DNA of 64,000 nucleotides from a virus. This document shows, in pieces, positions 23,898 to 36,540 of this stretch. Made by a program: the position numbers and the translations under genes. The notes beneath the pieces were generated by a model. It ran no database searches. It saw nothing but the letters and a program-made list of their open reading frames with translations, and had not been told where the DNA came from. The stretch is taken from the IMG/VR virus record IMGVR_UViG_3300045971_000895, positions 64,001-128,000 of that record; one strand, 5' to 3'. Position 1 is the stretch's first letter. Every line of letters starts with the position of its first letter.

Positions 23898-24782
23898 CTA
23901 CACCTGCGGCTGCTTCTTATTGTGGGCCTTGTGGAAGTACTTGAACGTCTCGTTGATGGCCACCTCGCCGGTCATGGCCTCCTGCTTGATGACGAGGAGG
24001 GTCTGCTTCTTCAGGTGAGCCATGAGGGCGCGCAGGACCACCACGACGATGCCGTTCCGCTCCCGGTTGTTGGCGGCCTCCGTACGGATGAGCCACTCGC
24101 GCAGCGTGTACGCCGGGCTCCCCTTGTGCCACCCATCCCCCGTGCCGTCGCGCAGGAGGATTGCGAAGTTGTTCACTTCCTCTGGGGCAGTGGGGTAGGC
24201 GTAGGCCATGGCGCCGATGATGGGGGCACGCGCCAGGGGCTCACGGGTGAGGACACCGATGGCCCACTCGAGACCGCTCTTGTGCCTCGAGATGATGTCG
24301 CGAGCCATGTCGACGGTCAGCTTGCCGCCGTACTCCCTCTTCTCGATGAAGCGGATGACCCGGCAGCCGGCCTCGTAGCGCCGGCCGTTCTCCAGGCCGT
24401 CGAAGAGGTGGAGCTGGTCCCCGATCTTCCGGACCAGCATGCCATCGATGACGACCATGGCTTCCCTGCGGACGCCCCAGGTCACCATCATGGGGATGCT
24501 GATCTTCTTCTCCTCGCCGGCCACCTCCTGGGCGAGGACGACCGCCATGAGCCGGTGCTGCCCATCCATCAGCACTCCCGCGTTGTCGAAGGCGAGGCCC
24601 TGGTGGGTGAGGTGCCACTTGTCGGCCAGCATGTCGGTGGCGTAGGTGTCCACCCGGTTCTGGCTGAAGTTGCGGTTGTGTGAGTTCGTCGCCAACCACT
24701 TCTTGGCGATGGTCATGGTGATGTTGACGACCTCCTGTCGGAGGACGCCGGACTTCAAGGCAATCACGTTCGTGGAGGACAT
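23898..24782 (-). CDS. ParB/sulfiredoxin-like nuclease-domain protein with DGQHR motif (DndB/DpdB-like)
   Basis: LMDGQHRLMAV motif in the N-terminal domain. 294 aa, with a GGAAGG RBS. Confidence 0.55.
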   Translation of the reverse strand: MSSTNVIALKSGVLRQEVVNITMTIAKKWLATNSHNRNFSQNRVDTYATDMLADKWHLTHQGLAFDNAGVLMDGQHRLMAVVLAQEVAGEEKKISIPMMVTWGVRREAMVVIDGMLVRKIGDQLHLFDGLENGRRYEAGCRVIRFIEKREYGGKLTVDMARDIISRHKSGLEWAIGVLTREPLARAPIIGAMAYAYPTAPEEVNNFAILLRDGTGDGWHKGSPAYTLREWLIRTEAANNRERNGIVVVVLRALMAHLKKQTLLVIKQEAMTGEVAINETFKYFHKAHNKKQPQV

Positions 24783-24863: not shown

Positions 24864-25046
24864 CTAGGCCGTGGGGGCGACCTTGGCCTGGAGCTTCGCC
24901 AGCTTCTCGCCGACCTTCACGGCCTTGGCGGAGAGGCGGTCGGTCGTCTTGCTGCTCTTCTCGACGGCCTTGGTGAGCGCCTTCAGGTCCTTCGAGGCGG
25001 CGCGGATCTTCTGGTTCAGCGAGGGCTTCGTGGTGTTCTTTGCCAT
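24864..25046 (-). CDS. small Lys/Ala-rich basic protein (H1/Hc1-like nucleoid protein?)
   Basis: 60 aa, about 30% Lys, AKAVK-type composition. GC3 bias. Confidence 0.4.
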   Translation of the reverse strand: MAKNTTKPSLNQKIRAASKDLKALTKAVEKSSKTTDRLSAKAVKVGEKLAKLQAKVAPTA

Positions 25047-25095
25047 GGTGTAGTTCTCCTTCGGGGTAGTGAACGGCCATCCGGGCCGTGCGGTT

Positions 25096-25536
25096 CTACG
25101 TTGCTACTGGGGCTTCTTCCTCGTCCTGCAAGAAGAGCTCATGAGCGAGCAGCATCTTCCTAGCATCTTCCAAGTCCTTTGCGTGATGAACTGAGTGCAA
25201 ATGATAGAAGATGTTCTTCGGCTTCTCGGGATGCTTACCGTCGAGAACGACGATGAACTTCCCTGCGGCCAGGGCCATTCCGAACTCCGTGAAGCCCCCA
25301 GCCATTCCGGCGTAGTTCAACAGCACGAAGGCGTCGCAGGAGAGAACCCCATCGACGTCCTTCTCGGCGCAGCCTTCGAGATAGGCCTCGAGGAACTTGC
25401 CGTGGAGACCTTCTGCGTTCTCTTCGGTCCAGTCGTGGGTGATGGTGTGCCCGTCCTCCCTGAGGGCGAGGTACACTTCGTGGACCGCCTTGGTGTTCTC
25501 GAACTTGGTACCACAGTAAACTCTCACGTCTTGCAT
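25096..25536 (-). CDS. nucleoside 2-deoxyribosyltransferase-like (Rcl/DNPH1-like) protein
   Basis: Internal ATG at 25536 with a GAAGGG RBS. Rossmann-like VYCG..., DGHTITHDW, VLLNYAGMAGGFTEFGMALAAGKFIVVL. The longer track ORF upstream of this ATG has junk-like composition. Confidence 0.5.
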   Translation of the reverse strand: MQDVRVYCGTKFENTKAVHEVYLALREDGHTITHDWTEENAEGLHGKFLEAYLEGCAEKDVDGVLSCDAFVLLNYAGMAGGFTEFGMALAAGKFIVVLDGKHPEKPKNIFYHLHSVHHAKDLEDARKMLLAHELFLQDEEEAPVAT

Positions 25537-25742
25537 CCCTTCGGAATGGCGGCGAGGCAGGCTTTGCACTGCTGCTCTGCCTCTGGCGGGTAGGGCTTCG
25601 GTCTTCCTTCTTGGATGGTGCTGATCCACTCGCGCCAACAGAGCGATGAGAAGACCATACCCAGGTTGCTGTTCTTGGCGGTGCGAGTGAAGAGGTGGTA
25701 GTTGCGGTCCTCTCCTCCACCTCTTCTCCAGAAGGCCTTCAT
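25524..25742 (-). CDS. small Cys-containing protein (72 aa)
   Basis: Its 13-nt overlap with the downstream start suggests translational coupling. Contains a CKAC motif. Confidence 0.35.
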   Translation of the reverse strand: MKAFWRRGGGEDRNYHLFTRTAKNSNLGMVFSSLCWREWISTIQEGRPKPYPPEAEQQCKACLAAIPKGCKT

Positions 25743-25748
25743 GCTCCC

Positions 25749-26246
25749 TCAGTCGATGAGGCCATACAGGCTGACCTCGTCGTGCTTGGGTGCCCTGGTG
25801 TTGAGGATGGAGCGCAACTCCTTCTCGTTCTCCACCAGGTACTTCTCGACCGTGGTCCCTACCGGCCCCACGAAGACGATGAAGCGAGGCTTCCTCTCTC
25901 CGATCCTCATGCCTTGCAGCGCAGGGAACAGGTCCCCCAGCTGAATGCCCAACCCCACCTTCCCTTCCGAGACTTCCTTCTCGAAGAGAACTCCGATGAC
26001 GGCCATCTCGGCTTCGTAGTCGGTGGTGTTGGGCCCGATGGAAAGGAAGAGAACTGTCTCGCCTGACTTGAAGGGAACCACCCGCCTGTTGGCAACCAGG
26101 GGGTGGTCCTTCACGACTCCAAGACGGAGTCCATCCTCGACGATCTTGCGGACCTGTCGACGGATGGACTCCTCTTGGAACCCCTTCGCCCCTTCGACCC
26201 TCTCTCGGAAGCGGTCGACGGCGTGCTTCGTGACTGCGATTCTCAT
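25749..26246 (-). CDS. hypothetical protein (165 aa)
   Basis: GC3 bias. N-terminal MRIAVTKHAVDRFRER. Confidence 0.45.
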   Translation of the reverse strand: MRIAVTKHAVDRFRERVEGAKGFQEESIRRQVRKIVEDGLRLGVVKDHPLVANRRVVPFKSGETVLFLSIGPNTTDYEAEMAVIGVLFEKEVSEGKVGLGIQLGDLFPALQGMRIGERKPRFIVFVGPVGTTVEKYLVENEKELRSILNTRAPKHDEVSLYGLID

Positions 26247-26470
26247 CTGCCATCCCTGACGGTCACCGAGGAGTTGATGATCCTCGTGATGATGGTCGAC
26301 TTCTTCGTGCCCAGCGGGATGACGATGCCGAGGATCCTGTCTGCGAACTCAACGAGCTGTGGCTCCGTCATCGCGAGGAGGTCAGCGTCGGTGAGGGACA
26401 GGTACGTGGTTGGGGCGACGGTGTTGGGGCGCCGACCCATGGGAGGAAGTGGGACCTCTTCGGCCTTCAC
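26243..26470 (-). CDS. hypothetical protein (75 aa)
   Basis: Overlaps the downstream start by 4 nt. Confidence 0.4.
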   Translation of the reverse strand: MKAEEVPLPPMGRRPNTVAPTTYLSLTDADLLAMTEPQLVEFADRILGIVIPLGTKKSTIITRIINSSVTVRDGR

Positions 26471-26502
26471 TTCCTCCCGGGGGCTGATGGCTGCCGACGC
26501 CC

Positions 26503-27462
26503 CTACTGGGGGTTTCCGGCGTACCTGTCGAGGTGGCGGGTGAACTCGGTGATGTTGGTCACCTTCGCCTCGGACAGGACCGGTCCCAGGCTCGGGACCG
26601 AGCCGTACATGTGGTGGAGCGCCGCGAGCAGCCGGCCGGCGGTGATGGCCTCGTTCCGCTCCATGGTCACGACGCGCTGCGACAGCTTCTCGAGGTCAGC
26701 CGAGATGACGGTCAGCCCGCGACCCAGCTCGACCACGAGGGCCTCCAGCCGCTGGAGGGCGGCCGGGTCCACGCTCGACACGCCGCCCGTGGGGGCGTAC
26801 TGCGGCGCCGGGGCGGGCGCCTGGATGGCCGGAGCCGCCTGGGGGACGTACGCCCCGGGGGCGGTCATCAGCGGCGCCTGGACGGGCGCTGGCGCGGCCG
26901 CAGGGGTCATCTGCTGCTGCGGCGCGGCCAGAGGCTGCCCGGCCGGTGCGGGGGCCCCGCCCGCGGCGCCGCGGCGCTTGCGGCCGGTCGTGGTGGCTGC
27001 CGGGGCCTCCTGCTGCTGCGGGGTGCCCATCTGGGCCACCTGCTGGGCCGACGGGGGCGCCGGCGGCGTCATCTGCGGCGCGGCGTAGGCGGCGGCGGGT
27101 GCCATCTGCGGCGGCCCGGCCTGGGGGGCGAACTGCGGCGGCGCGGCCTGCGGCACGCCGTTGCCCTGGACACCCCCCATCTGGGGCGTGGGGGCGCCCA
27201 TCATCTGCGCCGCGGCCGGGGCAGCCCCGCGGTCATCGACGATGAGGCCCTTGGCGATCTCGTGGGCGATGATGGTGGTCTTCACCAGCTCGCGGTCCTC
27301 GAGGGTCTGCTGGTACGTCATCAGCGGCTGGTCGTTCGGCCCCTTGTAGACCATGTAGGCCAGGTTGCGGACGGCCACGAAGCGGGCGTTGTCGAGCTGC
27401 GACTTGCGCAGGCTCGCGGTCATACCCGGGGTGGGCGACAGTTCGGTGTTGGCTTCAGACAT
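26503..27462 (-). CDS. protein with folded N- and C-terminal domains and a long Pro/Gln/Ala-rich low-complexity core
   Basis: Strong RBS AAGGAGA. Roughly 170 aa of PQ/AP repeats in the middle. Confidence 0.5.
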   Translation of the reverse strand: MSEANTELSPTPGMTASLRKSQLDNARFVAVRNLAYMVYKGPNDQPLMTYQQTLEDRELVKTTIIAHEIAKGLIVDDRGAAPAAAQMMGAPTPQMGGVQGNGVPQAAPPQFAPQAGPPQMAPAAAYAAPQMTPPAPPSAQQVAQMGTPQQQEAPAATTTGRKRRGAAGGAPAPAGQPLAAPQQQMTPAAAPAPVQAPLMTAPGAYVPQAAPAIQAPAPAPQYAPTGGVSSVDPAALQRLEALVVELGRGLTVISADLEKLSQRVVTMERNEAITAGRLLAALHHMYGSVPSLGPVLSEAKVTNITEFTRHLDRYAGNPQ

Positions 27463-27682
27463 CGTCTTCTCCTTCGAGTGGTGTGGAGTTGTCGAGCATG
27501 CCGCGAATCGCAGCGCGCTCTCCGTGCTTCGACATCATGAATGCCCTGGCGCGGTCGACCGCCTCAGGGACTGCTTTGAACAGGATGCAGGTGTAGCCGC
27601 TGAGGACTCGCTCGAGGTTTGTCTCTCGGCAGGTCCCCAGCTTGGTGCAGGCGAGGCACTCCCCAACAGCGGCTCTCACAGG
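27455..27682 (-). CDS. small Cys-containing protein (~75 aa)
   Basis: GTG start overlapping the upstream TGA (GTGA), with GAGGA 5 nt upstream. ECLAC...C motif. Confidence 0.3.
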   Translation of the reverse strand, partial: PVRAAVGECLACTKLGTCRETNLERVLSGYTCILFKAVPEAVDRARAFMMSKHGERAAIRGMLDNSTPLEGEDDV

Positions 27683-28020
27683 AGGTCCTCGTTCACGCCG
27701 AAGCAGGCGGCGTGCTGTCCTTCGGTGCAGGGCCAGGTGGTGCAGTGCCCGTCGCATCCGGGCAGCTGGCTCCTGGCTCGGGCCCAGTTCTCCTCGATGT
27801 GCTTCTGGAGTCTGAACCTCGTCTCGGTGGTCTGGGAGATGTGGTCCGCAGTGACGGCAACCCTCCCAGCGAGGATGCCCTCAAGGACGTCACGGGGGAG
27901 CCCTCTTCGGACCCTCCCGATGCCGCACTTCTTGATCATCTCGAGCAGCTCGGTCTCGTTGAAGGCCCGCATCCTCGCGGTGTCTTCTACAGTGAGCCGG
28001 TCAGTCGTCGACATCTTCAT
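27676..28020 (-). CDS. Cys-rich protein (115 aa)
   Basis: RBS AGAGAGG. C-terminal CDGHCTTWPCTEGQHAAC cluster. Confidence 0.4.
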   Translation of the reverse strand: MKMSTTDRLTVEDTARMRAFNETELLEMIKKCGIGRVRRGLPRDVLEGILAGRVAVTADHISQTTETRFRLQKHIEENWARARSQLPGCDGHCTTWPCTEGQHAACFGVNEDLL

Positions 28021-28471
28021 CCTCTCTTGTCGTGAAGCGACGCCACCGTCCATACCATCCAGCACTGACCTTGTTGGCGCCGATGTCGATGAGGACTTCG
28101 GAGGAGGGGCAGCTGGGGCAGAACGTGTAGGGCTTCGTGGAACAGAGGGCTCTCTCCACCGGCATGTAGTACTCGGGAGGGTACCCTCTCATTCGGTCTG
28201 TCTCTGCCCGCCAGCGCGGGCAAGCTAGCTGTTCGTAGGGATCCAGAGGCTGCGACTTGAAGACTAAGGTGAACGTCGAATGCAGGCAGGTAGGGCAGGC
28301 CGGGTACGGTCTCGTGAGGCAGACTGCCCGGTGCTGCACCTGCGTGATCGTGGGGTCGTAGGGGTTGGGGCGGCACGAAACGTTGATGCCGTTCCCCAGG
28401 ATCCCAGTGCCTCTCTGACGCTCCCTCGTCTCCTCGTCACTCTCTGGCAGCAGAGTGAAGGGGTTGATCAC
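28001..28471 (-). CDS. Cys-rich protein (156 aa)
   Basis: GTG start with AGGAGA 9 nt upstream. Multiple CP..C pairs. Confidence 0.45.
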   Translation of the reverse strand: MINPFTLLPESDEETRERQRGTGILGNGINVSCRPNPYDPTITQVQHRAVCLTRPYPACPTCLHSTFTLVFKSQPLDPYEQLACPRWRAETDRMRGYPPEYYMPVERALCSTKPYTFCPSCPSSEVLIDIGANKVSAGWYGRWRRFTTREDEDVDD

Positions 28472-28483
28472 ATGAGGGCTCTC

Positions 28484-28924
28484 CTAGATGCCGAAGTCGG
28501 TAGGGTCGACTTCTTGAACGTAGACTTCCACCCGTGCGTTCTCGGGGATGGGGTCATGGTGCTTCTCTTGGCTGCCTGCGAAGAAGCGTGAGTCGTCGAT
28601 GTCGATGGCGTCACGCACGCAGTCGGTCAAGAGCTTGATTCGGTTGTCCAGGTCGATTCTCTTATACCGATCTTTCGCCCTTCTTGATGGGGCGACATCG
28701 GGGTTGTTCCAGGACAGGTTCACGAGCTCCATGAAGAAGCGCAGGTGGACGGCGTAGAGGCCGTCTCGGTTCAGCCTGCTGATCTCGTGGAGGTGGTTCT
28801 GGGCCGAGTACTTGGCGAAGCTCTCGGCGAACTCACGGGCCTTCGCGGTGAGCTGCGTTCCGCGGAAGTAGATATGATTTGAGGTCGGCGGCAGGCCCGG
28901 GTAGACGATCTTCAGGGTGGGCAC
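28484..28924 (-). CDS. rusA: RusA-family Holliday junction resolvase
   Basis: LPPTSNHIYF, a lysine and the D-x-D-N motif (RIDLDNRIK). GTG start at 28924 with a GGGGG RBS. The N-terminal extension in the track ORF is junk-like. Confidence 0.6.
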   Translation of the reverse strand: MPTLKIVYPGLPPTSNHIYFRGTQLTAKAREFAESFAKYSAQNHLHEISRLNRDGLYAVHLRFFMELVNLSWNNPDVAPSRRAKDRYKRIDLDNRIKLLTDCVRDAIDIDDSRFFAGSQEKHHDPIPENARVEVYVQEVDPTDFGI

Positions 28925-29103
28925 TTGGCCCCCATGATCACCGGCTTCTCCTTCTTCAGGATGGGGCCGGCGCACTCAGCACAGACGTTGAGTGTCTTGG
29001 ATATCTTGATACCAGCGGGGTCCTCCACGACTCCGCTCACTTGAATGACCGCTGGCTTCTTGTCGCGGCACGTAGCCGCTTCGCATCTCACAGGCTCAGG
29101 CAT
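28912..29103 (-). CDS. zinc-ribbon mini-protein (63 aa)
   Basis: CEAATC...CAEC motifs. Confidence 0.4.
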   Translation of the reverse strand: MPEPVRCEAATCRDKKPAVIQVSGVVEDPAGIKISKTLNVCAECAGPILKKEKPVIMGAKCPP

Positions 29104-29338
29104 CGAGAGTAGCGAGCTCCTGGCGCAGGCGTTCGAGGTCCTTGTATCCGGGGATGCCTTCGAAGGCCACTTTGGTGGGGGTGACCCCGTGCTGCCCGCT
29201 CATCTGGACGAAGACGTAGGTGATCCCCGCCACCGAGGTCAGACGAACGAGCGCGTGCTTCCGCCCTTCCTGCACGAGCGAGGGGCGGAGCACGGGCACA
29301 TACTGCGGGCCGTAGTACTTCTTCAGCCAATCCTTCAT
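29096..29338 (-). CDS. hypothetical protein (80 aa)
   Basis: GC3 bias. Overlaps the next gene. Confidence 0.4.
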   Translation of the reverse strand: MKDWLKKYYGPQYVPVLRPSLVQEGRKHALVRLTSVAGITYVFVQMSGQHGVTPTKVAFEGIPGYKDLERLRQELATLDA

Positions 29339-29550
29339 CTCTTGATCCCCAATCCGAGGGTTTCGGCAGCCGCTCTTACGGCTCCCTTGTCAGGCCAGTT
29401 GGCTTCAACGTACCGCAAGGCGTCCTCTTCCGTCATCGGCTCTTTGCTCTGGAGCGTGATGAGCTCTTGAGCGTGCCGGGTCAGGGAGTCGACCTCGTAG
29501 AGCCTGAGTTCTTTGCCATCGGAGGCGAGGGTCCAAACGGTCTGCTTCAT
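29335..29550 (-). CDS. hypothetical protein (71 aa)
   Basis: ATGA overlap with the dNMP kinase stop. The upstream part of track ORF 29335..29958 is junk. Confidence 0.4.
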   Translation of the reverse strand: MKQTVWTLASDGKELRLYEVDSLTRHAQELITLQSKEPMTEEDALRYVEANWPDKGAVRAAAETLGLGIKR

Positions 29551-30269
29551 CCCGCAGACTCTACCTTCTCCCATGGCCATTGGGGACGGATCTTGCGCAT
29601 CAAGCTGTCGATGGCCGGGTAGTAGTAGAGGAGGCCGGCAGGGTTCTCGATGACATGATCGAAGTAGGAGTCGGGGACCTCCTTCTGCTCCGCCTCCGAG
29701 GCGTGGCCGGAGATGCCCACTGCTCCCTCGTAGCCCTCGCGCTTGATGCGGATGAGGATGCCTCCAGCCTTCCTCACCGCCTCGAACTCGTTCTTGAAGC
29801 GCAGGTCGGAGAAGACGGCGCCGCCGATCTCGCCGACGTCCTTCTCCGTGAACTTGAGGCCGTCCTTCTCGCTGTAGGTCGAGTAGCCCTTGATGAGCTC
29901 CTGGGCGATGCGAACCCCGTACTCGATCCAGACGCTCTGGTAGCAGTCCCGTCCCCACTCGGTGCCCAGCGTCTGGAGGGCGTAGCGGGGCGTGAGGTGC
30001 GTCTCACCGATGTAGTGGTCGCAGCGGAACTCGCAGGTCTGGCAGCCGTGGCACCTCTCGAGCCTTGGGTAACGAGGATCTGGGGCGTCCCGGCTGCTGC
30101 CGTAGAGCTGCTCGTCGGAGAAGAAGAAGATCTCCTTGCAGAACCGCTTCATCGGATCGGCCAAACCGACTCGAGTGAAGCGGTAGTTCTTCACGATGTA
30201 GTCGGCGAAGGTGTCTTTCCCGACTCGAGCCTGTCCTGCCAGCCCGATGATGAGACCCTTGTTGCTCAA
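29547..30269 (-). CDS. T4 gp1-like deoxynucleoside monophosphate kinase
   Basis: TTG start with AAGGA 7 nt upstream, overlapping the upstream stop. P-loop GQARVGKDTFADYIV, LADPMK, QTLGTEWGR and ISGHASE blocks resemble T4 Dnk. Confidence 0.6.
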   Translation of the reverse strand: MSNKGLIIGLAGQARVGKDTFADYIVKNYRFTRVGLADPMKRFCKEIFFFSDEQLYGSSRDAPDPRYPRLERCHGCQTCEFRCDHYIGETHLTPRYALQTLGTEWGRDCYQSVWIEYGVRIAQELIKGYSTYSEKDGLKFTEKDVGEIGGAVFSDLRFKNEFEAVRKAGGILIRIKREGYEGAVGISGHASEAEQKEVPDSYFDHVIENPAGLLYYYPAIDSLMRKIRPQWPWEKVESAG

Positions 30270-30601
30270 GCTGTCATCCTTTGTGGGCCTGACTTGGCCC
30301 ACGCGGTGGTCTGGTTGTTGGGGGAGTAGGAGAGCCTGACGCGGCTCCCCTCCTGAATGCAGTTCCAGTCTCCGTGCATGAGGCCCTGGCGGTAGATCTT
30401 CTCGAGCTCCACCACCTGGTAGGAGACGAACTTCTTCGTGTCTGGAGGGGCGCCTTGGAGGTTGTCCCAGGCGCTCTCCAGATCGGAGTCGGAGAGGTCC
30501 CGCATGATGCGGTGGGGGTCGATGGGCGCATCCGACCCGACCAGCTCCCACTCGATGATCTTCGACAACTGGTCCTGCCCACGGTTGCTGACCACGCCCA
30601 T
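30266..30601 (-). CDS. hypothetical protein (111 aa)
   Basis: GC3 bias. Confidence 0.45.
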   Translation of the reverse strand: MGVVSNRGQDQLSKIIEWELVGSDAPIDPHRIMRDLSDSDLESAWDNLQGAPPDTKKFVSYQVVELEKIYRQGLMHGDWNCIQEGSRVRLSYSPNNQTTAWAKSGPQRMTA

Positions 30602-30609
30602 GATTCCCC

Positions 30610-31203
30610 CTACTGCGGCCGGCGCACGAACGCCCGCCCGTGTACCGGAGTGTTGGAGACGTTGATGTCACGTCGGTTGCGGTTCACTTCCTGACCTCGC
30701 TGCGTGATGCGCCGAGAGATGGTGTCCCAGTCCTTCTGGGCCTTGTCCCTCTCGCCCCTCACCACGGACCAGACGGTGAAGTGGTAGAGCTCCTGGTAGC
30801 TGGCTTCGACGACACGGGGGTCGACTTCGACCTGATCGTTCTTGTCGGAGTCGGTCAGCTTCTTCCCGTCGCTGTCGACCCTGAGGGTCAGCCGCACACG
30901 GGCCATCGTCTTGGCGAGATGCACCTCAGCCTGCTTCTTGTAGGCCGCGGCCAAGGTGAGCTCGGTGTCGAGGTAGCCGCACCACCGAGACAGGCTGTTC
31001 AGCAGGTCGCCGAGAGCGGTGTCGTCCAGCGACGACAGATCGGCGGGCAGCTCCCCAGTCACGCCCTGGGGCCTTCCAGCGTGGATGATCCCCTTCTTCG
31101 ATACAGCCTCGAGACCATCCTTCACGGCGAGGGTCATGCTCTCGTCGATGGTCTCGAAGGATTCAGGAGGAAGGAGATCGAGTCTTCCAAGGATGCCGGG
31201 CAT
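30610..31203 (-). CDS. hypothetical protein (197 aa)
   Basis: ATG at 31203 with RBS GGAGGTGA. The upstream Arg-rich stretch of the track ORF is junk-like. Confidence 0.4.
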   Translation of the reverse strand: MPGILGRLDLLPPESFETIDESMTLAVKDGLEAVSKKGIIHAGRPQGVTGELPADLSSLDDTALGDLLNSLSRWCGYLDTELTLAAAYKKQAEVHLAKTMARVRLTLRVDSDGKKLTDSDKNDQVEVDPRVVEASYQELYHFTVWSVVRGERDKAQKDWDTISRRITQRGQEVNRNRRDINVSNTPVHGRAFVRRPQ

Positions 31204-31204
31204 G

Positions 31205-32074
31205 TCACCTCCGCTTGGTGCGTTGAGCCTGGAAGGCTTTGTAGGCCTCACAGGAGAATGCGAACCCACACTCTTCGCAGCCGTAGCCCGTCGTCGCCGG
31301 CGGCTCCTGCTGCCGGTTGTAGTGGTCGACGAGTACCCGGGCCTTGGATTCCATGCCACCCCAGATCGCGGGGTCGAACTCGACAGGGAAGTCGGCGAGG
31401 TTGGAGTCGTTCTTCGAGAGGTAGAGGAAGACGACGACGGGCCTGTTGAGGACCGCCGAGTAGACAGTCGCCTGCTGCTTGTGCTCTGGCTTGGGCCTGG
31501 TGAGCTTGGCGAAGTTGTTGCTGTTCATCGTCTTGTACTCGTGAACGACCCCCACCTCGTAGATGGGTGCGTTGGGGATGTCGTCGACGATCATGATGCA
31601 CTCGGCGTCGGCGGATCCCTCGATCATGAGCTCAGTTGCGAGCGGGTGGGAACCTTCCGTCATCCGGACTTCTGGGACGTACTGCGCGCCCCAGGCCCCA
31701 TCCAAGCCGTAGTTCTGGAACATGCCGTGGACGGCGTGGCCCAGGTCGAAGATGAGGAGCAGGCGGTTGTTGTGCTTCTCGTGCTCCTCCTTGCCCTCCA
31801 TCTGCCAGTAGATCTTGAGGAGGCAGGAGTTGATGATCTGCGAGGGGTGGAGCCCGGCGTGGCGTGGCGTCTTGAGGAGCCAGCCCTTCTTGTCGCACTT
31901 GTTGCAGGGCACCCACTTCCCCTCGTCAGGGATGGGCGGCCTGTTCTTCTTGCCCTGGAGGTAGCGGTAGAGCCGGTCCTTCACCTTCAAGCTCTGGAGG
32001 ATGAGGGACCGGATCTCTGGGCTGATCTGCACCCACTGCTCGATGGTGTGGAGCTGCACGACGGGGCGGCTCAT
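31205..32074 (-). CDS. PD-(D/E)XK exonuclease, Cas4/RecB-like, with an N-terminal Cys and a C-terminal CxxC...C cluster
   Basis: ATGA overlap start. Motifs IFDLGHAVHG, IVDDIP and YEVGVVHEYK. Cys at VPCNKCDKKGW and GYGCEECGFAFSC. Confidence 0.55.
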   Translation of the reverse strand: MSRPVVQLHTIEQWVQISPEIRSLILQSLKVKDRLYRYLQGKKNRPPIPDEGKWVPCNKCDKKGWLLKTPRHAGLHPSQIINSCLLKIYWQMEGKEEHEKHNNRLLLIFDLGHAVHGMFQNYGLDGAWGAQYVPEVRMTEGSHPLATELMIEGSADAECIMIVDDIPNAPIYEVGVVHEYKTMNSNNFAKLTRPKPEHKQQATVYSAVLNRPVVVFLYLSKNDSNLADFPVEFDPAIWGGMESKARVLVDHYNRQQEPPATTGYGCEECGFAFSCEAYKAFQAQRTKRR

Positions 32075-32415
32075 GACTTGCTCCCGCTCTGCATGTTGCG
32101 CAGCGAGAGGTAGTCGTACCAGCCGAGGACGGCCAGCTTGGTGTGCATGCCGGCGGCGCCCTGGAACTCGATCTGCATGACGGGAGACTCCCCGCCCTGG
32201 TGTGCCTCCTCCTGGATCTTCCGCCACTCGGCGAGCTTCAAGGAGTACGACTTGGCCGAGGTGGTCTTGCACTCGGCTCGGACATCGAGCGCGGCACGGA
32301 CGTCGCCCTTGGCGAACCCCGTTGCCCCGCTGCCCTTCTGTACGCGGCCGCCGAGATCCTTGGCGGTGCGACGCTCCTGGTTCTGGCTGCGTCGCTGATG
32401 GATAGTGCGGGCCAT
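32071..32415 (-). CDS. Hjc/restriction-endonuclease-fold (PD-(D/E)XK) nuclease, possible second junction resolvase
   Basis: Pattern ERRTAKDLGGRVQKGSG...KGDV...DVRAECKTTS resembles the archaeal Hjc-like core. Confidence 0.35.
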   Translation of the reverse strand: MARTIHQRRSQNQERRTAKDLGGRVQKGSGATGFAKGDVRAALDVRAECKTTSAKSYSLKLAEWRKIQEEAHQGGESPVMQIEFQGAAGMHTKLAVLGWYDYLSLRNMQSGSKS

Positions 32416-32422
32416 GGTGAAA

Positions 32423-32495
32423 GGGAAGAGCTGGGCCGTGTGTCTCTGGAGGGTTAGTCCGACTCGGGTAGCGGTACGCTCACCCAGCTCTTCCC
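32423..32495. promoter_or_regulatory. long-range hairpin (13-bp perfect arms, ~47-nt loop) in an intergenic region
   Basis: GGGAAGAGCTGGG (32423-32435) pairs with CCCAGCTCTTCCC (32483-32495). Lies between the histone gene and the nuclease gene. Confidence 0.3.
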
Positions 32496-32502
32496 AATCT
32501 CT

Positions 32503-32688
32503 CTAGAGGTCCGACGGCCTGACCGTCTTGCGGTCGTTGCCCTTGGCGCGCGTGATGGCGTCCTCGAGCAGGCACTCGACTTCGGCGTTGATGGCGTCCA
32601 TGAGGGACCCGTCGCAGCGCATGTCGTCGCCGCCCTTCGCTCTGATGAACTCCTTGACCCGCGTCTCGATGACGATGTTGACAGGCAT
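32503..32688 (-). CDS. singlet histone-fold protein, DUF1931/HBb-like bacterial histone
   Basis: 61 aa. IVIETRVKEFIRAKGG...LMDAINAEVECLLEDAITRAKGNDRKTVRPSDL. The C-terminal AKxxxRKTV motif and its spacing match bacterial and archaeal histone folds. Confidence 0.55.
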   Translation of the reverse strand: MPVNIVIETRVKEFIRAKGGDDMRCDGSLMDAINAEVECLLEDAITRAKGNDRKTVRPSDL

Positions 32689-32692
32689 GGTG

Positions 32693-34048
32693 TTAGTCCT
32701 CTCCTTCGAACATGGTTGCGTAGTTGACGTTGATGTCTGCCCTCTGAAGGCAGACGGTGCGGATGTAGTTCATGTAGCTGTTCGGGTCGCCAGCCTCCGC
32801 TCTGGCGAGAACGTCCTCCTCCAACATCATGGCGAACTTGCCCTTGCTGTTCGCCTTCAGCAGCTCCTCGCCGTTCGGGCCGACGAGCGTGTGCCACGAG
32901 CCACTCACCTGCACGATGCCGTACGTCGCTCCCACCGTGGCGTAGTCGAGGTAGAAGTTGGCGTTGTTGACGGGGATGATGGGCTCGGAGGGGTGAGAGC
33001 GCTCCTTGAAGAACTGGTAGATGTACCGGCCCCTCTCCCCTTCGTGGATGCCGGCCTTACCCTTCTTGATCTCCCAGTTGACGTCCTTGCCCCAGACGTC
33101 CTTCGCCTGCTGCTGGCCGATGGCGCTGGGGAACATCATCTCCTTGCCGTGGGCGGCGCCGGAGGTGATGAACAGGTCCACGAACTTCGCGTGCTCGAGC
33201 GCGTTGCCGCCCGAGGACTTGTAGGCCTTGTTGGGGTTCTTGATGTCGTCCCGGATCTGGTTGATGCCGAGAACGCAGGTGTCTCGGGACTCTCCCTCCT
33301 CGGTCCGCATGGTGAGGAGGGCGTTCAGCTTGTGGAGGAACTGAGTGTTGGGCCCAGCCGTGCCGGCGTAGGTCTTCTCCCGCAGCGACTCCGACTCCGC
33401 CTCGGCGCCCGACATGATGGAGCCGAAGGAGTTGATGACGACCAGGTGGTACACCCTGCTCTCGATGCCGCGGAGGATGATGTCGTAGAGGTCCTCGACC
33501 GCGTAGCCGTGAGCCTCGTGGATCTCGCCGATGGAGTGCTTGAGCTGGGCCCGGTGCTCCTTCGTGAACGGAGGACGTCCGTTGGCGACGTTGGCACGGT
33601 CGAGCGTCTCGATGTCTCTATCGGAGAGCGCCACGGCGCAGCCCACCTTCTGAGCCTGCGTGCGGTCGGCCCTCATCTCGGTCTGGGCGAGGAGGACGTG
33701 GAGCTTCTTCCCCAGGATTCCCTGCAACTGGCGGATGGTCTGCCAGATGAGGTAGTCCTTGCCGGCGTTCTTGGGGCCGATGATCTGGGAGATGGCCCCA
33801 GCGGGCCACCCTCCTCCCAGCTTGATGTCGAGTGAGAGGATGCCGGTCGGCAGTCTCTTCGTGTAGTACGGCAGCGTGTAGTCGCTGGCGAGGCAGAGCT
33901 CGGCGCGACCGTCCATCTTGTCGCCCACGTACTGGAGCAGGTCCGCGGCACGGCTGGCCCTGCTTGCGGTTGGCTCCTTCTGCTTCGGTGCCTTGCCCTT
34001 TGCCTTGGGCGCAGCCTTCTCCTCAGCCGTCTTCTTCTTGGGAGGCAT
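32693..34048 (-). CDS. RecA/UvsX-family recombinase with Lys-rich N-terminal tail
   Basis: LPTGILSLDIKLGGGWPAGAISQIIGPKNAGKDYL matches the RecA core and Walker A. 451 aa. Confidence 0.7.
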   Translation of the reverse strand: MPPKKKTAEEKAAPKAKGKAPKQKEPTASRASRAADLLQYVGDKMDGRAELCLASDYTLPYYTKRLPTGILSLDIKLGGGWPAGAISQIIGPKNAGKDYLIWQTIRQLQGILGKKLHVLLAQTEMRADRTQAQKVGCAVALSDRDIETLDRANVANGRPPFTKEHRAQLKHSIGEIHEAHGYAVEDLYDIILRGIESRVYHLVVINSFGSIMSGAEAESESLREKTYAGTAGPNTQFLHKLNALLTMRTEEGESRDTCVLGINQIRDDIKNPNKAYKSSGGNALEHAKFVDLFITSGAAHGKEMMFPSAIGQQQAKDVWGKDVNWEIKKGKAGIHEGERGRYIYQFFKERSHPSEPIIPVNNANFYLDYATVGATYGIVQVSGSWHTLVGPNGEELLKANSKGKFAMMLEEDVLARAEAGDPNSYMNYIRTVCLQRADINVNYATMFEGED

Positions 34049-34071
34049 CTACTCTCCTGTGGTGGGGTTGG

Positions 34072-34233
34072 TTACGGCTGCTTCGGGACCTTCTCCCATG
34101 GCTCGGTGCCACAGACCCGACACTTCGGGATCTCCTGTCTGGGGTCCAGCGCCCTTCCACACTTGGGGCACTGCTGGTCCTTGCCCGCTGTCTTGGTCTT
34201 CTCTTCATCCAGCTCAACGCCTAGCTTCTCCAT
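34072..34233 (-). CDS. zinc-ribbon mini-protein (53 aa), not in the ORF track
   Basis: MEKLGVELDEEKTKTAGKDQQCPKCGRALDPRQEIPKCRVCGTEPWEKVPKQP. RBS GAGGTGA. The ATG follows the HU stop. Confidence 0.4.
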   Translation of the reverse strand: MEKLGVELDEEKTKTAGKDQQCPKCGRALDPRQEIPKCRVCGTEPWEKVPKQP

Positions 34234-34236
34234 GTG

Positions 34237-34485
34237 TCACCTCAGGCTGCGGCTCTGTCGAAAGCGAATCTTACGACGGAGGGCTGACTTCTTGCCTTCC
34301 CCGAACAGCTCCTTCGGCTTCAGGTCGACCGGGTAGAAGGCACCAAAGCCAGGGAGCGTAACAGACTCCCCAGCCCTGATGGCCTCGATGATGCTGACGG
34401 GAAGCACCTCGATGACGGCAGCGACAATCCGCCTCGGGAGCTTCGTCCTCTTCCCGATGTCTGCGACCAGCTCTGAGCGAGTCAT
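34237..34485 (-). CDS. HU/IHF-family DNA-binding protein
   Basis: MTRSELVADIGKRTKLPRRIVAAVIEVL...VTLPGFGAFYPV matches the HU fold. Confidence 0.65.
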   Translation of the reverse strand: MTRSELVADIGKRTKLPRRIVAAVIEVLPVSIIEAIRAGESVTLPGFGAFYPVDLKPKELFGEGKKSALRRKIRFRQSRSLR

Positions 34486-34501: not shown

Positions 34502-36475
34502 TTACTTCGCTTCGGCCCACGAGTAGCCGCAGTGCGCGGACACCGGAAGGCCGACCGACAGTGGGGTGCCGAAGGGGTCCGACATGATCTCGTTGACCCT
34601 CTTGAGTGCGCGCCTCTCGATCTCCGGGTCGTCAGGGACCTCGAAGATGAGCTCGTCGTGGATCTGGAGGAGCATCTGGCAGTCGAGCTCCTTCAGCTCC
34701 CGGTCGTTCTCCGCCACGATCATGGAGTACTTGCAGGCCTCGGCAGCGGTGCCTTGAATCTCCGAGTTGACGCCCTGACGTTCAGCAGCAGCTCGGTCGC
34801 GCCGGCTCATGTTGTTGAGGTCACCGAAGCGGCGAGGACGACCCGTGATGGTGATGACTTGGCCGAACCTGGCCATGTCGTTCTTCACGTCCGCGATGTG
34901 GGTCTCCACGTCGGGATAGACGGCCAGCCACTTCTTGATGAGACCCCAGCCCTCTTCTTCAGTCACGAGCTTCTTGGTCTCTCTCGTGAGCTTGCGTGCC
35001 AGCTTGGGACCGCCGATGCCGTAGACGATGCCGAAGCCTGTGGACTTGTTGTTCTGGCGCTTGAGGAGCAGCTCGATGATCTCCTGCGTGTACTGGTCCT
35101 TCGGAGCCTTCTTGGCACGCACCACATCATCGTACGGGATGCCCTCGATCTCGGCCGTCGTGAGGCTGTGGATGTCCATGCCGCTGTTGATGGCGTCCTG
35201 CATCTTCTTCGACTTGCTGAAGTGCGCCAGCAGGCGCATCTCGAGCTGTTCGTAGTCGGCCACCAGGAGCTTCTTGTTGGCGCCGGGGATGAACGCCTCA
35301 CGGATCTTGAACTCATCCTCGTCGGGGCGAGGGATGTTCTGGAGGTTCGGCTCAGAAGAAGAGAGGCGACCGGTGACGGTGCCCGTCTGGTTCAGGGTGG
35401 TGTGGATGCGGCAGTACGGGTCGAGCCAGTTGGAGAGGCCCTCGACGTAGGTGCCGTAGATCTTGGCGATGCTCCGGTAGATGAGGAGCTTCTCTGCCCA
35501 CTCGCTCCCCTGGCCAGCCCACTCCTCGAGCGCCTCGGCGTCCGTGGAGGGCTGCTTGTTCCCGCTCTTCCCGCCCTTGGTGTACGAGACGATCGGAAGC
35601 TTGAGGGTATCGAAGAAGAGCTTCTGGAGCTGCTTCGGAGACTTCGGGTTGAAGACGCCGCCCACGAGATGGTTGAAGTCCCTCTCGATGGCGGTCATCC
35701 GCGTTTCCATCGGGCCCTTCAGGGACAGCAGGTAGCCCTTGTCCACCGTGATGCCGCGACGCTCCATCTTGTAGAGCACCTTCGCGAAGGGGACCTCGAC
35801 GCGGTAGTAGTAGTCCTTCAGCGAGCCCCACTGGAGGCTGGTGCGGTCCAGCAGCTCGTCGAAGTGGTGGCGCAGGATGGTGGAGTCGTAAGCATCAAGA
35901 CTCGCGTAGTCGATGGCTCGGTCGAAGGCATCCATGCCCTTGTGTCCCTCGACGACCTCCCGGATGATCTGCCCAATGGTCTTGCGGATCTCGCCCTTCT
36001 TCGCCTTGGGGATCTCGCCGAAGGTCTCCTCGAAGGTGGGGACGTGCCGGTTGAAGTGGTCGAACATGCACTCCTTGAGGCCGTGCCGTCCGACGTTGTT
36101 CTCGTTGTAGAGCCAGCTCTGGGTGAGGGTGCAGCGAAGATCCCCGGCGTTGACGATGTCGATGCCCGAGTTGGCGAGCATGTGCATGTCGAACTTCACG
36201 TTGGTGAGGTCGAAGTTGACCTCAGGGTTCTCGAGGATCGGCGCCTTGAAGAGGCCCAAGAACTTCCGGTCCAAGCAGATGCGAGTCTTGCCGTCCGAGA
36301 GCGACCAGATGATGACGTAGTCGCGGAGGCGGTCGAGGCCAGAGGTCTCGGTGTCGAGGCCCAGTCCCCCGTTCTCGCGGTGGGAGATGAGGTAGCGGTC
36401 GATCCACCGGCGCGCCTCATACTCGGTGTCGACGAAGTGAGGCTCAGGAATGGTGAGGTCGAAGGCGTGAGGCAT
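34502..36475 (-). CDS. family A DNA polymerase (3'-5' exo plus polymerase domains)
   Basis: Motif A VADYEQLEMRLLAHFS, motif B RAKKAPK..NNKSTGFGIVYGIG, motif C QIHDELIFEV. 657 aa. Confidence 0.8.
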   Translation of the reverse strand: MPHAFDLTIPEPHFVDTEYEARRWIDRYLISHRENGGLGLDTETSGLDRLRDYVIIWSLSDGKTRICLDRKFLGLFKAPILENPEVNFDLTNVKFDMHMLANSGIDIVNAGDLRCTLTQSWLYNENNVGRHGLKECMFDHFNRHVPTFEETFGEIPKAKKGEIRKTIGQIIREVVEGHKGMDAFDRAIDYASLDAYDSTILRHHFDELLDRTSLQWGSLKDYYYRVEVPFAKVLYKMERRGITVDKGYLLSLKGPMETRMTAIERDFNHLVGGVFNPKSPKQLQKLFFDTLKLPIVSYTKGGKSGNKQPSTDAEALEEWAGQGSEWAEKLLIYRSIAKIYGTYVEGLSNWLDPYCRIHTTLNQTGTVTGRLSSSEPNLQNIPRPDEDEFKIREAFIPGANKKLLVADYEQLEMRLLAHFSKSKKMQDAINSGMDIHSLTTAEIEGIPYDDVVRAKKAPKDQYTQEIIELLLKRQNNKSTGFGIVYGIGGPKLARKLTRETKKLVTEEEGWGLIKKWLAVYPDVETHIADVKNDMARFGQVITITGRPRRFGDLNNMSRRDRAAAERQGVNSEIQGTAAEACKYSMIVAENDRELKELDCQMLLQIHDELIFEVPDDPEIERRALKRVNEIMSDPFGTPLSVGLPVSAHCGYSWAEAK

Positions 36476-36540
36476 GTGTCCTCGGAAGAGAAGAAGGGAC
36501 GGCCCTTGCGGACCGTCCCTTCGGGTTCACTGCATCGGTG

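Follow-up and report, generated by a model that had tools for sequence, protein, structure and literature searches.

The DNA considered here, which we shall call the window, is a stretch of 64,000 nucleotides taken from a viral record of IMG/VR (IMGVR_UViG_3300045971_000895, positions 64,001 to 128,000). It contains a contiguous block of minus-strand genes, at positions 23898-45902, whose products include a DEAD/ResIII helicase, a UDG-family protein, a DnaB-like helicase, a DnaG-like primase, the DNA polymerase PolA, a RecA-like recombinase, a deoxynucleoside monophosphate kinase and RusA. Within this replication block an earlier note had singled out three small open reading frames (ORFs) and read them as three types of nucleoid protein, an uncommon combination that might form a phage chromatin system. 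All three are found exactly where it had placed them, at 34237-34485, 32503-32688 and 24864-25046, on the minus strand. Two of the three types are retained, an HU-like protein and a bacterial-type histone, with genes 1.5 kb apart in an arrangement that is kept across diverged lineages; the third protein, rich in lysine and alanine, has no evident link to them, and a phage chromatin system of three parts is not supported. The features that matter for the argument are these.

34237..34485, minus strand: HU/IHF-fold (DNABII) protein, 82 residues, isoelectric point (pI) 11.2, net charge +10 (PF00216)
34072..34233, minus strand: zinc-ribbon protein, 53 residues, CxxC...CxxC, weak matches to zinc-ribbon families of Pfam
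32693..34048, minus strand: RecA/UvsX-like recombinase, 451 residues (PF00154, E 7e-8)
32503..32688, minus strand: histone of the face-to-face (FtF) type with truncated alpha3, 61 residues, no tail, pI 4.95 (PDB matches HLp and HTkC)
24864..25046, minus strand: orphan basic protein, 60 residues, net charge +11, pI 10.5, predicted amphipathic heptad helix

The histone is the centre of the matter. Searched against PDB as a single sequence, it matches HLp (9QT0, E 6e-7) and HTkC (9F2C, E 8e-7), with HBb/Bd0055 trailing at E 0.02; a profile made from phage sequences only gives E 1e-9 for HTkC (9F2C), 2e-8 for HLp (9QT0) and 4e-5 for HBb/Bd0055, and HBb scores 10-15 bits below the FtF structures. 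The source database of an identical protein names it 'histone H3/H4'. The phage protein is colinear with HLp and HTkC and ends one residue past D60, as befits a histone fold in which alpha2 is shortened and alpha3 has 3-4 residues. In an alignment of 17 sequences, those of its closest homologues, the only invariant columns are V37, R47, N51, R53, T55 and D60, among which we recognize both the RxTxxxxD motif, or RD clamp (R53, T55 and D60), and the tetramer residues of the FtF histones (R47, N51 and R53). The latter three align with R49, N53 and R55 of HLp, S52 and F63 of HLp corresponding to G50 and L61. In HLp these tetramer residues and an R55-D62 clamp are reported to be conserved among tetrameric FtF histones (PMC12701072). 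The alpha3 histones are described as having an alpha3 helix of 3-4 residues, with R48 and N52 of the family logo kept for tetramerisation in the FtF members and lacking, by definition, in the bacterial dimer histones (PMC11390915); where the phage protein has R47 and N51, HBb carries S and D. As for DNA contact, the five residues with the highest DNA-binding energy in HLp, S14, K15, K17, K21 and R59, align with T9, R10, K12, R16 and R57 of the phage protein (the codon of R57 being AGG). Because the FtF residues are kept and HBb scores lower, we can take the product of 32503..32688 to be, on its sequence, a true alpha3-truncated histone of the FtF type; of the earlier label, 'HBb-like histone', the noun stands and the adjective has to go.

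Neighbouring classes of histones were considered and set aside. The 'phage histones' of Schwab et al. lack RxTxxxxD and have a C-terminal helix (PMC11390915); the protein of the window has the motif and no C-terminal extension, and it was rejected as a member of that group or of the VTTH group. Membership among the IHF-related histones was likewise discarded: the apparent operon does include an HU-like gene, yet the structured two-helix tail is missing from the C-terminus of the histone. Read-through of the histone TAG stop codon into the next gene, which encodes a resolvase, was also dismissed, the two genes being in frame in three of five relatives, a number that chance could explain; 22 of the 58 genes of the window stop at TAG.

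The family around this protein is large. An exhaustive HMMER search with the histone returned 381 cluster representatives at E ≤ 0.001, many of them tandem doublets, and in 28 of the 60 extended homologues inspected (about 45%) there is an N-terminal tail rich in lysine, often in lysine, alanine and proline. Tandem FtF doublets of 119-126 residues rank highest against the phage histone profile (among P0006-P0012, P0019 and P0061 in our numbering of homologues), and hydrophobic N-terminal segments resembling signal peptides are seen in P0011, P0012, P0019 and P0061, an odd feature for DNA-binding proteins. The closest homologue with a lysine tail, P0009 (53% identical), is encoded on the minus strand of a 1-kb contig (L012:2-463) and adjoins a gene with the motif HIDHDHKTG...CPQCN, which resembles endonuclease VII and hints at a phage context. 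Scans of IMG/VR with the histone family alignment, with P0013 and with P0009 gave one already known contig or nothing.

The HU-like protein passes the curated threshold of Pfam (41.1 bits against PF00216, for a cutoff of 22.4; E 2.2e-10), it matches PF18291 (HU-HIG) at E 6e-7 and phrog_379 at E 5e-11, and HU chains of PDB at E 4e-5 to 6e-3, so that its identification as an HU/IHF homologue in the earlier note is borne out. Residues 1-59 are colinear with the HU of Anabaena, including G46-F47-G48; they comprise the helical body of dimerisation at the N-terminus and the GFG motif through which it passes into the beta-sheet. The arm that follows GFG is several residues shorter than that of HU and reads DLKPKELFGEGKKSALRRKIRF; together with the C-terminus it makes a very basic segment, residues 55-82, which is the most conserved part of the protein, nearly invariant among relatives. 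The gene is strongly constrained: its ratio of non-synonymous to synonymous substitution rates (dN/dS) is 0.09-0.27. The protein is thus a true member of DNABII, though a divergent one. In a distant relative, L016 (contigs are designated by L numbers here), a single ORF of 134 residues at 1711-2115 is a fusion of HU and then the zinc ribbon, the counterpart of 34072-34485 in the window, and this suggests that the separate HU and zinc-ribbon proteins of the window work together.

The recombinase, whose matches in a tblastn search are phage genes annotated as RecA or UvsX-like, carries an N-terminal tail rich in lysine, alanine and proline, encoded at 33971-34048 of the window, that reads MPPKKKTAEEKAAPKAKGKAPKQKEP. 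The start MPPKKK is kept in L008 and in L011, an outgroup of low G+C content, and the start in L016, MAKKEKK, is comparably rich in lysine. This tail is more H1-like in composition than the lysine- and alanine-rich ORF for which that likeness had been proposed. A metagenome scan with the RecA alignment keyed on the low-complexity N-terminus and returned only three loci. Four nucleotides separate the stop codon of the recombinase gene from the start of the histone gene, the Shine-Dalgarno sequence of which is encoded by the last codons of the recombinase; with such a layout the histone would be translationally coupled to the recombinase in the phage of the window.

Around these genes the order, in the direction of transcription, is a terminator-like hairpin, PolA, HU, the zinc ribbon, the recombinase, the histone, a Holliday-junction resolvase and an exonuclease with a Cas4 domain. 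The flanking features are listed below.

36493..36522, minus strand: terminator-like hairpin just upstream of PolA, 13 pairs of which 9 are G-C, a possible operon boundary
34502..36475, minus strand: PolA, family A DNA polymerase with 3'-5' exonuclease (PF00476, E 6e-97; PF01612)
32071..32415, minus strand: Holliday-junction resolvase, 114 residues (phrog_2002, E 3.5e-27)
31205..32080, minus strand: Cas4-domain / PD-(D/E)XK exonuclease, 291 residues (phrog_1706, E 5e-19; phrog_1990, E 3e-16)

PolA is the first gene past the hairpin and lies directly upstream of the HU gene, a position kept in L001, L004, L008 and L014. A scan for promoter and terminator consensus sequences found no more sites in the region than expected from shuffled sequence.

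Comparison with related phages, which the earlier note had called for, is where the association of HU, recombinase and histone gains its weight. The order PolA, HU, zinc ribbon, RecA, histone and resolvase is kept in L001, L002, L003, L004, L014 and L015, and again in L016-L018, a distant lineage with identities of 54% for RecA and 48% for the histone and with HU and the zinc ribbon fused; the gap between recombinase and histone is 48 nucleotides in L016. The resolvase follows the histone in all relatives, and it comes directly after the recombinase where the histone is absent. Such is the case of L008 (RecA 57% identical), which keeps HU, the zinc ribbon, RecA and the resolvase without the histone. 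In the outgroup L011 neither HU nor histone is found near the recombinase.

The two proteins do not evolve alike. In L009, RecA is 94% and HU 93% identical to those of the window, and the histone only 54%: at the nucleotide level, identity is 90-98% until the histone gene is reached and drops to 63-80% precisely there. Synonymous divergence (dS) of the histone in this pair is 0.40, within the range of its neighbours (0.25-0.44), and dN is about nine times higher than theirs; the resulting dN/dS is 0.89, and it is 0.80 against L004 and 0.37 against a third relative, all estimates resting on about 43 synonymous sites. Against two close relatives, then, the evolution of the histone is nearly neutral. 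We read HU as the older core of the arrangement, under strong constraint, to which the histone was added later as a dispensable and fast-evolving member. A second hot spot of divergence from L009 is the zinc-ribbon gene, where 34060-34223 of the window is 57-75% identical at the nucleotide level to L009:430-591; with dS at saturation (1.5) and a dN/dS of 0.22, this looks like replacement by recombination, not fast evolution in place.

The third ORF had been described as 'Lys/Ala-rich H1/Hc1-like'. The composition is indeed as described, with 13 lysines and 11 alanines among 60 residues and a net charge of +11; the likeness to H1 or Hc1 does not go beyond it. No match to PF00538, PF07432 or PF07382 appears in Pfam up to E 10, with the proviso that HMMER filters can drop very weak matches; no relative emerges from Pfam, NCBIfam, PHROG or PDB, where we observed sub-threshold coiled-coil noise only; and the protein has no KK, AKKA or S/TPKK motif. 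AlphaFold2 models it as one continuous helix over residues 10-56 (mean predicted local distance difference test score, pLDDT, 83), and that helix has chance matches only in a Foldseek search of BFVD. The a and d positions of its heptads read LIALLVSTLAVLLV, without any charged residue, a pattern reached by none of 20000 shuffled sequences. In this model the protein is a basic amphipathic coiled coil, and 'H1/Hc1-like' expresses a compositional resemblance only; the charge of the protein might allow it to bind nucleic acid. Three types of orthologue are known, all in close relatives of this phage: two are database proteins, and the third was read off a related contig. The automatic JGI name 'CheD' of one homologue, P0001, was set aside as spurious.

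Nothing evident ties this protein to the HU-like protein or to the histone. Its gene is 7.5 kb downstream of the histone gene, near the end of the block. All three ORFs are conserved together in the phage of the window, in L001/L002/L010 and in L004/L006/L007, that is, among close relatives; the available contigs of more distant relatives, which are short, showed no homologue of the lysine- and alanine-rich protein. Just downstream of this third gene a conserved tRNA is found in two relatives (L004:10277-10351 and L001:17936-18010; 51 bits with Rfam), with compensatory changes in its stems between the two copies. ARAGORN gives it the anticodon CUA, which would be amber-suppressor-like, and position 33 is A rather than U. 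L004 also has an array of 17 tRNAs, and the window has no tRNA. The gene that follows in L004 differs from the last gene of the block in the window (23898-24782, minus strand), which encodes 294 residues with a DGQHR motif, a weak match to TIGR03187 and a strong one to phrog_5931, a family of unknown function. A protein of 319 residues encoded further upstream (26503-27462, minus strand) has a long low-complexity centre rich in alanine, proline and glutamine; it has 313-320 residues in relatives and matches no family.

As to the source of this DNA, matches to baseplate wedge and portal proteins among plus-strand genes elsewhere in the window indicate a tailed phage. A histone identical to that of the window is encoded on a JGI contig of 198 kb, and a relative on one of 196 kb; the window is a piece of the genome of an uncultured large tailed phage. 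Among GenBank phages, megablast with the module found no DNA-level similarity and tblastn with the histone no match, so that no cultured relative emerged, and a scan of GTDB genomes found no prophage copy, hence no clue to the host. The three small ORFs look like real genes, since several lines of evidence converge: G+C content at third codon positions (GC3) is 0.76 for HU, 0.95 for the histone and 0.98 for the lysine- and alanine-rich ORF, for a background of about 0.85; AAGGAG Shine-Dalgarno sequences stand 8-13 nucleotides ahead of the start codons of the latter two; orthologues of all three occur in several independent metagenome contigs; and dN/dS is below 1 for each of them.

How may we understand this arrangement? 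We propose, with moderate confidence, that the HU-like protein and the histone are architectural DNA-binding accessory factors, acting on replication or recombination intermediates, or locally on phage DNA. The genes from PolA through the HU-fold protein, the zinc ribbon, the recombinase, the FtF histone and the resolvase to the Cas4-like exonuclease would form a leftward early or middle operon. The HU-like protein would be a dimer that bends DNA, and the histone a homotetramer that would wrap or bridge about 60 bp, as HLp does, so that both could shape replication and recombination intermediates or organise phage DNA locally. The identities of the proteins, their signature residues, synteny and evolutionary rates are shown by the analysis; the oligomeric states, the binding to DNA and the link to recombination are inferred. 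A local hmmsearch of all six-frame ORFs of the window found no second histone, HU or lysine- and alanine-rich paralogue, and a histone or HU paralogue acting as heterodimer partner was rejected on this basis; with a single gene for each, both proteins would act as homo-oligomers. The position of the two genes amid those of the recombinase and the resolvase points to a specialised task in recombination or replication, not to a genome-wide chromatin, and a histone that is acidic, tail-less, labile and near neutral in its evolution is a poor fit to a core protein of bulk chromatin. A comparable interpretation, specialised rather than global organisation, has been given of the operon-embedded RdgC and IHF histones (PMC11390915).

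Several observations weigh against this proposal. The histone is acidic (pI 4.95, net charge -2, with -2 to 0 in the other alleles of this phage group), when the median net charge of 58 tail-less homologues is +2 and only about 5% of them are at -2 or below. Its loop L1 has an acidic insertion (GGDD), D52 stands where HLp has the DNA-contacting K54, and E8, D21, D22 and D52 all lie near positions of DNA contact in HLp, so that DNA binding by the histone may be weak. The AlphaFold2 model of the monomer, from an input of three sequences, has the expected layout (helices at 2-17, 27-51 and 58-60) at a low pLDDT of 62, and Foldseek found no usable match for it in PDB. On the side of the HU-like protein, the alignment with PF00216 covers only profile positions 1-60 of 90, and the RNPxT motif, which in canonical HU carries the intercalating proline, is absent from the arm. 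The small number of synonymous sites behind the rates of the histone must also be counted here. Finally, phage genomes are mosaic, and adjacency to recombination genes is no proof of a functional link.

The same facts can be turned to other ends. The histone, possibly with the HU-like protein and the basic coiled coil, might be a weapon made early against the nucleoid of the host, its nucleoid proteins or its DNA-sensing defences. A labile slot, empty in L008 where the surrounding genes remain, and an allele that departs abruptly from its well-conserved surroundings in L009 would suit this role, and the neighbour-like dS, the ninefold dN and the dN/dS of 0.89 are typical of conflict genes. HLp expressed in a foreign host is reported to reorganise the nucleoid of E. 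coli (PMC12701072), and expression of Hc1 to stop macromolecular synthesis (as summarised in PMC12619734). We nevertheless hold this role to be rather unlikely: the genes are part of a replication and recombination operon and not of the early host-takeover genes, HU is strongly constrained, the rapid change of the histone could reflect relaxed constraint instead of positive selection, and no defence or anti-defence family was matched, none having been searched for. The charge of the histone invites yet another thought, that the fold serves here as a protein-protein module, for instance a mediator or regulator of recombination made in stoichiometric amounts with the RecA-like protein. Its acidity, with a net charge of -2 to 0 in all alleles found in the group where the tail-less median is +2, the GGDD insertion and D52 would then make sense, as would translational coupling to the recombinase, and the lysine-rich tail of the recombinase could pair with an acidic partner. 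Schwab et al. themselves caution that not all histone-fold proteins organise genomes (PMC11390915). Against this, at the five main positions of DNA contact of HLp the phage protein has residues of matching type (four are basic and one bears a hydroxyl), the residues of tetramer and clamp are invariant, and the gap in L016 means that coupling is not conserved; we would therefore call such a module quite unlikely.

There remains the chromatin system of three components, in which HU, histone and the lysine- and alanine-rich protein together would compact the phage genome, for example for packaging. It would draw on the joint conservation of the three genes in close relatives, on the strong basicity of two of the three proteins, on a GC3 and Shine-Dalgarno sequences of the histone and third genes that are compatible with good expression, and on the lysine-rich tails that 28 of the 60 extended homologues bear in cis, which make a basic partner in trans conceivable. 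The picture does not hold up, and we regard it as very improbable. The supposed linker protein has no detectable relation to H1 or Hc1 and is modelled as a heptad coiled coil, not as a disordered tail; it is encoded 7.5 kb away and went undetected in the short contigs of distant relatives; the histone, acidic besides, is fast-evolving and dispensed with in L008; and the genes lie among those of the recombinase and the resolvase, in the replication block and not in the late structural block. A bolder version of our own proposal, an architectural role of HU and histone next to the recombinase, deserves mention as a long shot: HU (with the zinc ribbon), recombinase and FtF histone would make a conserved recombination-chromatin unit in which DNA wrapped by the histone and bent by HU is the substrate of the recombinase, and in which the basic tail that the histone lacks, and that many FtF histones of cells and viruses have in cis, is supplied in trans, by the coiled coil or by the tail of the recombinase.

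If the accessory role of HU and histone is adopted as a working view, the locus connects a histone fold with replication that depends on recombination, and not with bulk chromatin, and this is a concrete hypothesis that can be put to test. Descriptions of tailed-phage histones come to date from metagenomic catalogues alone; for the phage-encoded alpha3 (bacterial-type) histones we found no functional data in the literature. Natural variation offers a guide for experiments, with the histone present or absent, its alleles rapidly diverging, and HU and zinc ribbon separate or fused. The apparent novelty lies in the synteny of HU (with its zinc ribbon), recombinase and FtF histone, conserved in phages, and in a tail-less and acidic form of the histone. 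The individual parts belong to kinds already known, and the system as a whole is not new in kind; the rarity which the earlier note saw in the combination is weakened by reports, each on its own side, of phage histones of FtF and Bd0055-like types (bioRxiv 10.1101/2024.12.06.627149) and of Hc1-like proteins (PMC12619734).

It is worth considering these known systems in turn. Hc1-like proteins of PF07432 are reported in 'moraphages' (PMC12619734); like them and like H1 the third ORF of the window encodes a small, strongly basic protein rich in lysine and alanine, and unlike them it has no match to PF07432 or PF00538, none of the KK, AKKA or S/TPKK motifs, and a single predicted heptad helix. 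TF1 of phage SPO1, listed among the nucleoid proteins that phages encode (PMC6606824), and PHROG 379 provide the precedent for a DNABII fold in a phage module of nucleic-acid metabolism; compared with such HU homologues, the present protein has a shorter beta-arm, RNPxT is not seen, and a zinc ribbon follows or, in L016, is fused. The IHF-related and RdgC histones are similarly found in multi-gene operons, with a gene of the IHF/HU fold or one associated with recombination (PMC11390915); they are bacterial or archaeal proteins of other sequence groups with structured C-terminal extensions, whereas here we have a bare FtF fold in a phage, accompanied by an HU-like protein (with its zinc ribbon) and a RecA-like recombinase. 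HBb/Bd0055 of Bdellovibrio (PDB 8CMP, 8FVX) belongs to the same alpha3-truncated superfamily, as the match of the phage profile at E 4e-5 attests, but it is a bacterial dimer histone with S and D in place of R47 and N51.

The nearest relatives in kind are to be sought among the FtF histones themselves. Two groups of histones of Caudoviricetes, VFFH and the Bd0055-like BBVH, have been mined from IMG/VR, the former being predicted to form FtF-like tetramers; a VFFH typically has a lysine-rich N-terminal tail of 5-40 residues, when the phage histone described here has none, and a linkage to HU or to a recombinase is not mentioned in the accessible part of that survey (bioRxiv 10.1101/2024.12.06.627149). 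The closest structures are HLp of Leptospira perolatii and HTkC of Thermococcus kodakarensis (PDB 9QT0 and 9F2C), likewise proteins of about 60 residues that consist of the histone fold only, with a truncated alpha3; they are the best PDB matches by sequence and share with the phage protein the RD clamp, the tetramer residues and the five matched positions of DNA contact. They differ from it in charge, the aligned parts having a pI of about 9 against 4.95, and the phage-encoded protein is set apart by an acidic insertion of three residues in L1 and by D52 where HLp has K54. They differ also in setting: HLp is proposed as the principal organiser of DNA in species where HU and Dps are reported to be lacking (PMC12701072), whereas the phage histone is one gene of a multi-gene recombination operon.

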